15,603 nucleotides of DNA from a virus. The position numbers and the translations under genes are program-made. The DNA lies in the UHGV virus genome UHGV-1832398; one strand, given 5' to 3'. Positions 4,332 through 15,157 of this stretch are shown piece after piece; position 1 is the first letter of the stretch, and every line of letters begins with the position of its first letter. A model generated the notes under the pieces. That model did not search any database. It was given only the letters and a program-made list of their open reading frames with translations, and had not been told where the DNA came from.

Positions 4332-5156
4332 TCAGGCGCTGAAAGTACCAATGAAGGTTTCTACTTTGCTGTCTTTGAATTTCTCAACAAGCAGATCACG
4401 AAATTCGTTAGCCATTTCTTCCTGCACCGCTTCCAGCTGAATAATGCGCAGAACCAGTACAGGACGATCGCCAGTGATAATGCTGAGGCGTAATTTAAAC
4501 GGACGTTCTTTCAGGCCTTCAAACGGAACGCATTTAAATTCAAATGCCACTGGCATAATATCTTTGGTTTTCGCTTCGACAGACTCCATCAGGGAGCGTT
4601 TGCCGCTGAAGTCATTATCTTCAAAATCAGCGGTCTGGTTTGCTTCAATCGTGATTTTACGGACAGCCGCAGCCGCTTTTGTTGCCTGAATAGCGTCACC
4701 ATTAGCATCAAAGCCCACAAGGTAGCCGGCCCAGTCTTCAATCCATTCTGCCAGTGACTTCTGGGAATGACGCTCGCCATTAACAGACAACAGAGCAGAG
4801 AACGGTGCTGTCTTTTTCAGTTTGAGAGTGGCGGTGTTATCTGCGTGACCTGGTTCATCAATAGTACCCAGGTTAAGCACACTGACGGCTCGCATATTAT
4901 CGGCATCGATAAAGCAGCGGGTGCCTTCATCTGCAAGATCTTTAGAATAACGGGTAAAGTCATCGATGCTGGCAGTGGAAAGCGCACCACGGAAACGGAA
5001 GCGATTTAAATTAAATTTTTCCAGATCATGAATGCGGAAATTCTCAGGCAATGCCACAGCATCGGCACCAATCTTACTGATAATTTCATTAACACCCTGA
5101 GCAGAAATAAGGGCATGGATTTGATTAATTGCGGTTGCGTCTAAGTTCTGAGACAT
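4332..5156 (-). CDS. yfdQ: YfdQ-like prophage protein (DUF2303-type, 274 aa)
   Basis: 274-aa ORF with SD GAGGA 7 nt upstream; length and synteny (between YfdP-like and YfdR-like) match the CPS-53 yfdP-yfdQ-yfdR arrangement as I recall it. Confidence 0.65.
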
Positions 5157-5584: not shown

Positions 5585-5920
5585 TTTGCTGCTCCTCATC
5601 ATATCGACCCTGCAAGGCCGATTAGTTTCTCCACAAAACAGAGAAGAACACCTGCGGTGGCAGCCGCCCGGATGGATTGGGTTATGAGCCCGTCGTCCGG
5701 TGATGCTCTTCTCTGTTTTGTAAAAAGGACGGTACCAGCCGGAAGCAAGGGTACAAACTGGTACCGCCGGGACTACACACAGCATAAAGTTGTGGTGCCG
5801 GGTGCCTCCCGGTGCCTGGCGAAGGTTGCACACCAGACGGGTGGGTATCCACAGAAGGTCGACTGTCAGCCTCAACCTTAACCCGCGTGCGCTGAGCCGC
5901 ATTCACCACAACGCTAAGGA
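5585..5920. other. GC-rich, ORF-free, highly self-complementary segment in the leftward early transcript (candidate structured RNA element)
   Basis: 15-bp perfect inverted repeat 5633-5647 / 5707-5721; additional nested complementarities 5731-5738/5758-5765, 5789-5797/5904-5912, 5822-5828/5872-5878; overlapping ORFs in several frames (typical of non-coding GC-rich DNA), none with an RBS. Confidence 0.3.
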
Positions 5921-6021
5921 TTCTCTCTGGTTGAAAATACTTAGCTGTTATGTGCCTGTCTTTTCACCACTTCAGGCTCGGTGGGATCCTTTTAAGCCCG
6001 TATACATAAAAGGAAAATCAA

Positions 6022-7390: not shown

Positions 7391-7591
7391 ATGACAACTG
7401 ACGATATCGAAAGCTACTTCGGCAGTATTGAGAAAGTTGCTGCTTTTTTCGGCATAACAACTGAAGCCGTTTATCAGTGGCGAAACCGTCCGGGCCAGTT
7501 AATTCCAAAAGGACGTGCAGCAGAAGCTGCATATAGAACTTGCGGACGGTTGCCATTTAAACCTGAGCTTTATGAAAAATCTAATGGATAA
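7391..7591 (+). CDS. cro: Cro-like small HTH regulator
   Basis: 66-aa ORF divergent from cI with SD GGAGGG; HTH-like segment (VAAFFGITTEAVYQWRNR). Confidence 0.7.
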   Translation: MTTDDIESYFGSIEKVAAFFGITTEAVYQWRNRPGQLIPKGRAAEAAYRTCGRLPFKPELYEKSNG

Positions 7592-8180
7592 ATCGATTAA
7601 CAGAAACCACAGAACGATGAGGCTAACCGTGGGTAAGCATCACTGGAAAGTAGAAAAACAGCCTGAGTGGTACGTGAAAGCTGTCAGAAAAACTATCGCA
7701 GCGTTGCCGGGTGGTTACGCTGAAGCAGCTGACTGGCTGGATGTAACAGAAAACGCATTATTTAACCGCCTTCGTGCCGATGGCGATCAGATTTTCCCGC
7801 TGGGATGGGCAATGATTTTGCAACGTGCTGGTGGAACTCACTTCATTGCTGACGCTGTGGCGCAGTCTGCAAATGGCGTCTTTGTGTCTCTTCCTGACGT
7901 CGAGGATGTGGACAACGCCGATATTAACCAGCGCCTGCTGGAAGTCATTGAACAGATTGGCAGTTATTCCAGACAGATTCGTTCGGCAATCGAAGACGGT
8001 GTGGTGGAACCGCATGAGAAGACAGCAATTAACGACGAGCTGTATCTCTCAATTTCGAAGCTGCAGGAGCATGCAGCACTGGTCTACAAAATCTTTTGCA
8101 TTTCAGAAAGTAATGACGCCCGCGAGTGTGCAGCTCCGGGCGCCGTGGCGTGTCGTGACTGTGGAGAAACTAACGCATGA
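7584..8180 (+). CDS. CII-like regulatory protein (possibly phage 186 CII/CP76-type); start uncertain
   Basis: Position immediately after cro; the ORF track's start at 7515 overlaps cro, so the ATG at 7584 (overlapping the cro stop) is preferred but has no good SD; family assignment from recalled similarity only. Confidence 0.5.
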
Positions 8181-13261: not shown

Positions 13262-13292
13262 ATGATTTTCGCCGAAGATGGCGACGTAATGC

Positions 13293-13321
13293 TTGCATTT
13301 TTCAAAAAATATGGATAAAAT
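13293..13321 (+). promoter_or_regulatory. Candidate late promoter PR' (-35 TTGCAT 13293-13298, 17-bp spacer, -10 TAAAAT 13316-13321)
   Basis: Direct reading; located 32 bp downstream of the Q stop and ~50 bp upstream of an intrinsic terminator, as expected for a PR'/qut/tR' unit. Confidence 0.4.
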
Positions 13322-13366
13322 TTTTTCAACGATGGGCTTTATATACCCGACGTTAAGAAAAAGTAG

Positions 13367-13392
13367 AAAACCCGCTGATGAGCGGGTTTTTG
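13367..13392 (+). terminator. Intrinsic terminator (candidate tR'): AAAACCCGCT-GATG-AGCGGGTTTTT
   Basis: 6-bp GC-rich stem extended by a flanking A-tract/T-tract, followed by TTTTTG. Confidence 0.65.
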
Positions 13393-13676
13393 TGCTTTAA
13401 ATAGGGTAATAGAGATGTTGAATCTCATTCCGGGATTCATGTTTGTTTACTTATTATTTATCGGGTGACTTTGCCTGATGTTTAAAATGTTTTCTTCCAG
13501 TACTATGTCCCTAGATACAATGAGTCTGCATATTACATTATTAGCAGAGCTATTACGGTCAAAGTACAGCATAAGCTTTTAAAGCCAATCAACCAGTCAT
13601 CAAGACAGACGGGGTTATTCATGAAAACTCTCCATGTTTGATTCGATGGGGCCTGAAATTAAAGCTTTAATATAGC

Positions 13677-13889: not shown

Positions 13890-14189
13890 AAAAATTCCTT
13901 AATACTGATAACTGGGCGCACTATACACACGTTCCTGAAGAAAGCTATAGTTTTTTGATGGGGGTGAAGATGGCTGGATGTCTAAAATAAACATTGCTTC
14001 ATATGTTCAACTATGCGTTAATGATTGCGTCGGTTTGAAGAACAGACGATATACGAAGTAGTTTACTAAAGCAGTTCTCATTTCAGGTGTTATTCACTTA
14101 TTCCTTCTTTGAGTCTCTCCAATTAAGTACGAAGTCGTTTCTGTTATACAAGCCATTTATGCCGAAAGGCTCAAGTTAAGGAATGTAGA

Positions 14190-14405
14190 ATGTCAAATAA
14201 AATGACTGGTTTAGTAAAATGGTTTAACGCTGATAAAGGTTTCGGCTTTATTTCTCCTGTTGATGGTAGTAAAGATGTGTTTGTGCATTTTTCTGCGATT
14301 CAGAATGATAATTTTCGAACCTTATTTGAAGGTCAAAAGGTTACCTTCTCTGTAGAGAGTGGTGCTAAAGGTCCTGCAGCAGCAAATGTCATAATTACTG
14401 ATTAA
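14190..14405 (+). CDS. cspB: CspB/CspA-family cold-shock protein
   Basis: 71 aa; [19 protein letters not shown] ... VFVHFSAI (RNP1/RNP2 motifs); conserved 5'-UTR 'upstream box' GCCGAAAGGC at 14161-14170 as in cspA-family leaders. Confidence 0.85.
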
Positions 14406-14686
14406 AATTCATAGTTTGTCTGTATACGATAACGAAGAAGGCTGATGCCTGAGTGGAGATACAGACAGAGTGGTGAATATTGGATCTCTTTAATAAATAG
14501 TAAGGAGGTCCAATACATGAAACAATGGCCAGCATATTTGGCAATAACTTAATCAGGAAAAGTATGCTAACCATTGTGGTGAAGTGCAGGTTTGCTGCAT
14601 GAATAGTTTTACAGCAGAAGCTAACTGCTGGCATAGCAAAACAAAGTGCGTAAGTGGATGACTCCCACAAAAAGTACCACAATATT

Positions 14687-14710
14687 AAACCCGCTCAGGC
14701 GGGTTTTTTA
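14687..14710 (+). terminator. Intrinsic terminator AAACCCGC-TCAG-GCGGGTTTTTT
   Basis: 5-bp GC stem, 4-nt loop, six-T tract; closes the cspB-downstream transcript. Confidence 0.65.
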
Positions 14711-14768
14711 TTATCTGCTTTAAATATGTTATTAAAATATAAAAAATACTTGTTACGAATAAAATCAA

Positions 14769-14939
14769 TCAAGCTACAGCTTTAAGATTTGTCTGGAATA
14801 CTTTGTTGCAATGAGGGCAGATCAAAAGGGTACCTTTTTGTACTCTTGAAAAACTGTGTTCTGACTCTTGGGTGCAGTTTGGGCAGGAACATTTAACGAG
14901 ATAATTACGGCGTGATTTTGAGTCTTTACGTTCTGACAT
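14769..14939 (-). CDS. Hypothetical small zinc-ribbon protein (56 aa; CSCPNC ... CPHC)
   Basis: Start at internal Met MSERKDSK with SD AGGA 7 nt upstream; two CxxC pairs; the ORF track's longer version starts at 14990 without an SD. Confidence 0.5.
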   Translation of the reverse strand: MSERKDSKSRRNYLVKCSCPNCTQESEHSFSRVQKGTLLICPHCNKVFQTNLKAVA

Positions 14940-15157
14940 AGGCTTTTCCTGTATAAATGGCCGTATACAGTACACTAAATATGAAAACATATCTCGTATT
15001 ATTATTTAATATATGATTTTCTTTTAAAATAATTACCCACATTTTTAATGTGTCTGTTTTTTAGCGCCGTTGAGAACAACGTTTGCTATAAAAACTAACC
15101 CATAGACTCCGATCTTTTCAAACATATTGCACCATCTGTGTACATCGGGGTGAGGAT

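Follow-up and report, generated by a model that had tools for sequence, protein, structure and literature searches.

Cold-shock control in Escherichia coli has been studied almost wholly via 5' untranslated regions (UTRs), and the cspA thermoregulator of Rfam (RF01766), the described family that comes closest to the locus reported here, is itself a model of a 5' UTR thermosensor that ends at the cspA terminator. The 3' UTRs of enterobacterial messages give rise to small RNAs (sRNAs), CpxQ and SdhX among them, and kink-turns (K-turns) occur in box C/D RNAs and in several riboswitches. Here, we analyze the region downstream of the cold-shock gene cspB in UHGV virus genome UHGV-1832398, within a window of 15,603 nucleotides (nt), that is, the whole stretch of DNA under study, which corresponds to a Qin-like lambdoid prophage of E. 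coli. An annotation made from the sequence alone, called the original prediction below, had proposed that positions 14406-14710 form a candidate sRNA or leader-peptide unit, with a short transcript encoding micro-peptides or acting as an sRNA. Our analysis shows that this region, which is the spacer between cspB and the convergent gene ynfU, contains, on the same strand as cspB, two conserved RNA modules, hairpin A and a distal domain of ~160 nt, and that these modules travel with the csp gene in the chromosomes, prophages and phage-plasmids of Enterobacteriaceae. In the reading that we favor and regard as probable, the spacer is the long, structured 3' UTR of a horizontally mobile cspB-type gene, does not code for peptides, and acts as a processing or stability module.

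The distal domain, which lies on the + strand as cspB does, is composed of a hairpin, P1, and a core (14573-14683) in which a long-range helix, P2, encloses three hairpins, H1, H2 and H3, together with a long joining strand. The fold of 14521-14712 has an energy of -59.7 kcal/mol (z = -3.7). P1 spans 14522-14577. Its inner helix (14527-14535/14564-14572), which is the part tested for covariation, has changed on both sides in seven of nine pairs among 41 distinct sequences and is present both in the minimum free energy (MFE) fold and in the RNAalifold prediction, whereas its outer part (14522-14526/14573-14577) competes with P2. The P2 helix itself (14573-14581/14675-14683) is paired in 94% of alignment cells, with four of its nine pairs compensated (G-C/A-U, A-U/U-A, A-U/G-C and U-A/C-G). 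Within it, H1 (14584-14600) has 6 base pairs (bp) and a variable 5-nt loop, is paired in 99% of cells, shows an A-U to G-C compensation in four distinct sequences and has a closing pair that alternates between G-U, A-U and G-C. H2 (14612-14630), also of 6 bp but with a 7-nt loop, displays double-sided changes in two pairs. H3 (14654-14668) forms 4-5 bp in the window, where the innermost A14658 and C14664 are unpaired, and has a variable loop; it is paired in 95-99% of cells and carries a U-A/A-U swap in 10 distinct sequences. H2 corresponds to a hairpin of the original prediction, which was right about its existence and had placed it at 14611-14629, while the enclosure of three hairpins by P2 had gone unnoticed.

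The five helices P1, P2, H1, H2 and H3 were derived by eye on an alignment of 24 diverse sequences (A3), in which 94.5% of the pair cells are standard and 14 of the 35 pairs have changed on both sides. In 500 shuffles, the observed values for paired cells, double-sided changes and the covariation score were never attained, and sliding the partners by one to three columns left 24-56% of the cells paired. RNAalifold predicted P1, H1, H2 and H3 independently, and replaced P2 with small local helices in which there are no double-sided changes. A covariance model (R1) gave a single high-scoring match at each true locus (97-179 bits), and the R1 alignment, which holds 41 distinct sequences, has 93.1% of its cells paired and 16 of 35 pairs compensated, with again no shuffle out of 500 as high. 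Since G-U pairs are frequent on the cspB strand, we place the RNA on that strand. As for primary sequence, the 111-nt core is 71-82% identical between the window and distant lineages, whereas the same comparison gives 66-81% for the csp coding sequence (CDS), 49-68% for the 5' UTR, 51-60% for the stretch from the stop codon to P2 and 48-58% for the 150 nt downstream. By this measure of sequence identity, the core is conserved to a degree equal to or above that of the neighboring csp CDS, while the flanks are near background.

Two unpaired segments of the core do not vary at all among the relatives retrieved. The H2 loop, AAGCUAA (14618-14624), is identical in all 51 non-Qin viral contigs that came from a scan imposing no constraint on the loop. 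The second segment is a 12-nt strand, AAAGUGCGUAAG (14643-14654, +), in the joiner between H2 and H3, of which only the last G is paired, as part of the first H3 pair; it is identical in all 30 contigs retrieved by anchors leaving the strand free. Scans anchored on H1 alone, with the loop free, or with the 12-mer free returned only previously found loci, and the invariance of the motifs is therefore not a search artefact. The joiner between the two invariant blocks differs in length by 1-3 nt, with indels of 1-2 nt, so no reading frame can span them.

The element is not confined to the Qin prophage. Sensitive blastn located copies of 14571-14713, ~79% identical, downstream of other csp genes; one set belongs to SSU5-like phage-plasmids (phage Cyrano and ~90 plasmid records from E. 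coli) and the other to phage PHB10. A first four-way alignment displayed compensated hairpins and two invariant unpaired blocks. Pattern scans on the invariant blocks yielded more than 120 viral contigs, 51 of which are of non-Qin type, and 32 loci in a one-genome-per-species collection. The genera represented are Escherichia, Shigella, Enterobacter, Kosakonia, Kluyvera, Phytobacter, Leclercia, Raoultella, Atlantibacter, Pseudescherichia and Superficieibacter. Three pattern matches in unrelated phyla were discarded as chance, the covariance model rejecting them. At every locus whose upstream DNA could be inspected, a co-oriented cspB-type gene precedes the element, and a divergent cspF-like gene usually stands before that csp gene; a convergent ynfU-like gene and/or a co-oriented open reading frame (ORF) of 75 amino acids (aa) often follows. 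In the window, the structured element starts 4 nt past the cspB stop codon. Because it adjoins this stop codon and is always co-oriented with a csp gene, the element reads as a 3' UTR. On the + strand, a sigma-70 promoter scan gave no site from 13951 to 15006, and no promoter conserved across lineages could be recognized by eye upstream of P1. With no promoter-like site and an invariable association with the csp gene, a separate short transcript gains no support.

These conservation data also bear on the possibility that the spacer has no function of its own and is an ordinary spacer with a terminator, the likeness among loci being due to the recent horizontal spread of one cassette. The members do all occur in mobile or island-like contexts of one bacterial family, and degenerate copies exist (for example, loci L181 and L173). 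We nevertheless regard this as very improbable: csp CDSs have diverged down to 66-72% identity and the other flanks to background, while the core stays at 71-82% with invariant blocks, and compensated pairs make up 16 of the 35.

The proximal module, upstream of P1, is hairpin A (14407-14478, +), which is 72 nt long in the MFE fold and has as its core the 9-bp inverted repeat noted in the original prediction. The left arm of this repeat, TGTCTGTAT, is indeed at 14417-14425, while the right arm, ATACAGACA, is at 14459-14467 and not, as had been given, at 14456-14464 (off by 3). Folding 14403-14520 gives -43 kcal/mol (z = -7.4, 200 shuffles). Among 20 aligned sequences, 8 of the 10 pairs of the outer stem have changed on both sides, and 85% of its cells are paired, compared to 28-44% with the partner slid. 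The interior is conserved as CGAYAAC-(GAA/GAU)-GA ... GA-GURG. In the window, the pairs A14432-U14454 and C14433-G14453 are followed by a GAA bulge (14434-14436), by the facing GA dinucleotides 14437-14438 and 14451-14452, and by an apical stem (14439-14442/14447-14450). This internal loop looks like a K-turn, a likeness of sequence pattern whose layout is seen in 16 of the 20 sequences, the GA/GA pattern being broken in four, including L175, L186 and L132. Hairpin A occurs in all lineages except the PHB10 type.

Hairpin A sits at the site of the cspA terminator in the Rfam thermoregulator model. RF01766 scores 158.3 bits at 14029-14468 (gathering score, 78) and reaches the first 63 nt of the spacer only, laying hairpin A on its terminator stem with many non-standard pairs; the fit is poor, and no U-run follows the hairpin. 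Hairpin B (14479-14514, +), which in this lineage lies between the two modules, has a 14-bp stem that appears in both the MFE and the centroid fold, and its sequence is identical in K-12. At the same position, SSU5-like and L104 lineages have hairpins of other sequence, and the hairpin is weak or absent in lineages of the Enterobacter type.

Transcript 3' ends published for K-12 fall between the two modules. The Term-seq data of Adams et al. 2021 (PMC7815308, supplementary file 1) contain minus-strand 3' ends at 1641226 and 1641224, with 0.60, 1.23 and 2.46 million reads in three conditions, which is in the range of the most abundant entries in the examined part of the table (PMC7815308). On the window, these dominant ends are at 14518-14520 (+; 14518 = 1641226 and 14520 = 1641224), a position that follows hairpin B by 4-6 nt, precedes the first P1 pair by 2-4 nt and falls on the ATG of a mini-ORF, ORF1, discussed below. 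Because a 3' end in the cspB 5' UTR (1641634) has just 57,000 reads (PMC7815308), RNA ending after hairpin B appears to be far commoner than upstream fragments. The data point to a stable processed RNA that carries hairpins A and B.

We propose that transcription from the cspB promoter very probably runs through to the terminator at the end of the spacer, and that during lytic growth Q-modified polymerase coming from the late promoter pR' would cross the whole element toward the lysis genes. The primary transcript would be cut or trimmed just 5' of P1, a step for which we find the case evenly balanced, and hairpins A and B would then form a cap that keeps 3' exonucleases from the remaining cspB message or from a stable fragment of its 3' part. 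The distal domain would be a processing or stability signal or a platform, with a putative conserved partner that reads its invariant motifs, a suggestion that we advance tentatively; it may also be released as an RNA of ~190 nt. A known self-cleaving ribozyme was considered and rejected, as there is no Rfam match and a ligation-captured 3' end argues against a cyclic-phosphate product. Term-seq captures 3' ends by ligation, which requires a 3'-OH.

Several points weigh against the processing/stability reading. The mapped 3' end could be the result of plain exonuclease trimming to hairpin B, with the distal domain uninvolved. The curated K-12 Term-seq lists, which cover three conditions at 37 °C, hold no cspB-strand 3' end at the terminator, and a RIL-seq-derived node table, also from 37 °C, contains only cspF.cspB.IGR and the cspB CDS and no cspB 3' region. 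Neither is the cspB 3' region among the entries of the Hfq CLASH supplements, and like the other two data sets these were obtained at 37 °C, where cspB is poorly induced. Since the PHB10 lineage has no hairpin A and one Escherichia variant has no P1, the parts are not all indispensable. In addition, the structure was counted on the same sequences from which it came, and the 41-sequence alignment was fitted to it. All members belong to Enterobacteriaceae or their mobile elements, with an effective sequence number of 1.25 in the model, and the apparent conservation is inflated by shared descent through horizontal transfer.

We rank the rival readings in the order of a trans-acting 3'-UTR RNA, a read-through switch, the neutral spacer weighed above and a peptide unit. 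According to the first, ~14521-14712 would be an sRNA derived from the 3' UTR by cleavage next to P1, with the H2 loop and the 12-nt strand as seeds or protein sites, serving a cold-shock regulon. Such an RNA would share the terminator of the mRNA and its six-U tail, its unpaired motifs are invariant across genera, and the counterpart left by cleavage on the upstream side would be the RNA with the abundant 3' end located 2-4 nt before P1. We consider it unlikely in view of the missing 3' end at the terminator under three 37 °C conditions and of its absence from the RIL-seq-based node table and the Hfq CLASH supplements. Moreover, most lineages are without a canonical terminator after P2, and neither the neighboring genes nor rRNA yielded a complementary site. 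Reverse-complement 8-mers of the 12-nt motif gave scattered matches at 18 related loci, none at a site conserved across lineages, and the longest runs complementary to the invariant motifs in 16S, 23S and 5S rRNA were no better than in shuffled controls. A further proposal, which is similarly doubtful in our view, would make the distal domain a new class of regulatory RNA of mobile cold-shock cassettes, in K-12 too. It would be cut at the foot of P1 by a structure-guided endonuclease, and would act through the loop and the 12-nt strand as a protein-sequestering or target-pairing riboregulator, or as a temperature switch.

The spacer ends with an intrinsic terminator (14687-14712, not assigned to either strand), which was part of the original prediction and was recovered by a pattern scan. 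Its stem (14687-14706) has eight pairs, five of them G-C, and a 4-nt loop, and the T-run extends to 14712, giving a UUUUUU tail in the window. The CCCGC/GCGGG stem, with differing loops, is found in the SSU5-like, L104 and L132 lineages too, while the Enterobacter-type and PHB10-type lineages have no separate terminator after P2, the U-rich tract following P2 directly. The terminator is apparently bidirectional and shared with the convergent ynfU, the same hairpin terminating that gene, since Term-seq has a 3' end at 1641060 (+), just past the terminator on the ynfU strand (PMC7815308). The ynfU message ends 14 nt past the shared stem and therefore overlaps the complement of the P2 3' strand by a few bases.

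In the distal domain, the sequence ACAAU occurs twice, as the 5' flank of P1 (14522-14526) and as the last five bases of P2 (14679-14683), and AUUGU at 14573-14577 is complementary to each of them. The three segments vary in concert in other lineages, AUAUC/GAUGU/ACGUC being one such set. This suggests, on sequence grounds, that the pairings of the P1 flank and of the P2 end are mutually exclusive and, because both pairings of 14573-14577 covary, a conformational switch is possible. Such a switch, sensing temperature or a ligand, might govern termination or read-through into the 75-aa ORF in chromosomal copies or into the lysis genes in the prophage. The two covarying pairings and the U-rich tract directly after P2 in Enterobacter-type and PHB10-type lineages would suit it, and a junction with invariant joining strands together with a K-turn-like element is typical of riboswitch-grade folds. 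We judge it improbable, however, because the next gene is convergent (ynfU or dnaE) in most lineages, with nothing co-oriented immediately downstream, and because there is no match to an Rfam riboswitch. A tRNA-like fold was also considered and rejected by eye, as the arm sizes and spacers do not fit.

The original prediction placed two mini-ORFs in the spacer, each preceded by a Shine-Dalgarno (SD) sequence. These are present exactly as described: a perfect SD, AAGGAGGT (14502-14509), 7 nt before ORF1 (MKQWPAYLAIT, 14517-14552, +), and a second, AGGAAA (14555-14560), before ORF2 (MLTIVVKCRFAA, 14564-14602, +). We judged neither to be a gene. ORF1 is confined to the Qin lineage, and its alleles (P/L, I/K, T/S, S/P, A/V and W to stop) amount to six non-synonymous changes and no synonymous ones. 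Two of the changes hit the P1 stem, where the K-12 change from CCA to CTA restores a pair. The perfect SD lies within the 3' arm of the 14-bp hairpin B, which sequesters it, and the ORF1 ATG coincides with the mapped K-12 3' end. As for ORF2, its ATG is inside the 3' strand of the P1 helix, its aligned start is ATG, GTG, TTG, ATA or GAA, and its SD is not conserved. The entropy at codon positions 1, 2 and 3 is 6.64, 3.28 and 2.36 bits, respectively, which is the reverse of a coding frame. An R to G change in this frame is one half of a compensated A-U to G-C pair in H1, and the CAA that replaces the ORF2 stop in L132 improves an H1 pair. L173 and L080 have neither ORF1 nor the start of ORF2.

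The idea that one or both mini-ORFs are translated, and that this translation matters, is accordingly the least probable of the readings, and highly improbable. It can draw on the canonical SD 7 nt before ORF1 and on the in-frame stop of ORF2, which is kept in 21 of 22 lineages. It is countered by the exclusively non-synonymous ORF1 changes, one of them a stop, and the absence of ORF1 outside the Qin lineage, by the burial of the SD in a 14-bp stem, and by ORF2 variation that peaks at first codon positions and an ATG that is paired in P1. In addition, the K-12 RefSeq annotation has no small-protein gene here, although start-site ribosome profiling found the neighboring ynfU. In distant relatives, by contrast, compensatory changes maintain the RNA helices. 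The original prediction is partly supported: its RNA is upheld by strong covariation, invariant unpaired motifs and an abundant K-12 3' end inside the region, and its peptides are not, and it had missed that the SD is inside a 14-bp hairpin and the ORF2 ATG inside P1. The locus serves as a caution: RNA helices can give rise, as a side effect, to short ORFs and a textbook SD.

A 95-aa ORF on the opposite strand (14395-14682, -) exists, as the original prediction had it, and we concur that it is non-coding. Its one Pfam match is sub-threshold (19 bits vs. a cut-off of 27). Among the matches listed, no start-bearing ORF of at least 45 aa was found on the minus strand over the element outside Qin, L162 and L132/L161. 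There is no coding periodicity, third codon positions varying least in two of three gap-free blocks and the third block being flat, and the G-U pairs of the + strand would be A-C mismatches on the strand of this ORF. It was rejected as a gene on account of the sub-threshold match, the few counterparts and the lack of periodicity.

The surroundings of the spacer are those of the Qin prophage. A 1.1-kb query spanning the region matched over at least 80% of its length in 1,616 of 5,426 complete E. coli genomes (~30%), and the features under these matches are annotated cspB, ynfU and essQ. In CFT073 and K-12, the gene order is Q antiterminator (ydfT), cspF (opposite strand), cspB, ynfU (opposite strand) and holin essQ; 14406-14710 is the cspB-ynfU spacer, which has no annotation in either genome and is present in K-12 at 96% identity. 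The cspB CDS (14190-14405, +), annotated as such in both, matches Pfam CSD with E = 8e-32, and ynfU (14769-14939, -), annotated in RefSeq, encodes a small zinc-ribbon protein (Pfam YnfU PF23499, E = 1e-30). The Q of the window is of the lambda type (Pfam PF03589). Just past the Q gene is a late promoter, TTGCAT-17 nt-TAAAAT (13292-13320), with an initial transcript, CAACGATGGG, that resembles that of lambda pR'; the sigma-70 scan missed it, its -35 element matching at three of six positions. It is followed by a bidirectional terminator (13367-13390), for which K-12 Term-seq has a 3' end at 1642356 (minus) with 55,000-123,000 reads. The 13292-13395 unit is probably a short, 6S-like leader RNA. 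Since the late promoter and the first terminator sit at 13292-13395, the terminator of the spacer was rejected as the late-operon tR'; the spacer lies 1.1 kb further on, behind cspF and cspB.

Some of the related loci have peculiarities of their own. In L173 (Escherichia sp. E1V33, 7493-7660), hairpin A almost abuts P2, and hairpin B and the 5' strand of P1 are missing; in L080 (2912-3124), the sequence is unrelated up to the first base of P2 and P1 is missing. Both are natural deletion or recombination variants, useful as natural mutants for the role of P1. The L169 element (Raoultella lignicola, 4424-4625) has ~7 repeats of an 8-nt unit, GCCTGAAA, between H1 and H2, and the model still scores 117 bits. 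Many non-Qin lineages, L093 (~1473-1700, -), L175, L176 and L180 among them, have the conserved 75-aa ORF (MIKVLVFFNAE...SIRQEYPNGEE...) downstream of the element; this ORF belongs to no Pfam family, its match is PHROG 3425, whose function is unknown, and the window does not contain it. Locus L187, labelled 'MAG: Veillonella parvula', has a cspB, element and ynfU of the Qin type that hardly differ from those of E. coli K-12, and is most likely a mis-binned E. coli contig. Finally, the window itself contains a weak covariance-model match at 5788-5952 (-), with 27.6 bits and a rough E of 4e-4. This match overlaps a 226-aa ORF (56% G+C) at the 5' end of the latter, recurs in the same prophage in L002 and L156, and is probably due to chance.

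How, then, does the element compare with known systems? Against Rfam 15, the distal domain (14522-14712) gave chance-level matches only (E = 0.09-0.97, 17-26 bits against thresholds of 41-56), and four divergent homologues gave no match over the element. The element has no Rfam family; we found no paper that describes it, and the papers that mention cspB treat the 5' UTR. STnc100 (RF02076), the other non-coding RNA of the relatives' cassettes, differs from it in sequence, position and structure and is absent from the window. Because STnc100 matches occur downstream of the element, in L004 (4288-4489, +, 52.7 bits) and L093 (1093-1286, -, 47.6 bits; gathering score, 47), the mobile cold-shock cassette has at least one further non-coding RNA. 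The 6S RNA of lambda, the pR'-tR' leader, is also a short terminated RNA unit between Q and the lysis genes; its counterpart in the window is the 13292-13395 unit and not the spacer, whose terminator would be read through only by Q-modified polymerase. Like CpxQ and SdhX, the element is located at an mRNA 3' end, has its terminator in common with that mRNA, has conserved unpaired sequence and is preceded by a processing-type end just upstream. It differs from them in its much greater size and more intricate fold, which combines a multi-helix junction with a K-turn-like hairpin; the 37 °C data above gave no Hfq or RIL-seq signal for it, and many of its lineages are without the Rho-independent terminator that such sRNAs need. 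In hairpin A, the order of a canonical helix, a 3-nt bulge, tandem G-A/A-G and a second helix, with a first position that is often non-Watson-Crick, resembles a K-turn as a pattern.

The closest relationship remains that with the cspA thermoregulator, which is part of the same transcript, the cspB 5' UTR and CDS and the homologous cassettes matching RF01766. The distal domain (14522-14683) lies wholly outside that model, and hairpin A differs from the cspA terminator in having no U-run, in its poor fit to the last stem of the model and in a conserved internal loop that cspA is without. If the element does control the processing or stability of csp mRNA, or yields a cold-induced RNA, it would add an extra layer to the cold-shock response and help explain why phages carry csp cassettes. 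The fold, which is present in ~30% of complete E. coli genomes (K-12 is one of them) as well as in phages, phage-plasmids and at least 10 other genera, places a complexity like that of riboswitches at the 3' end of cspB.

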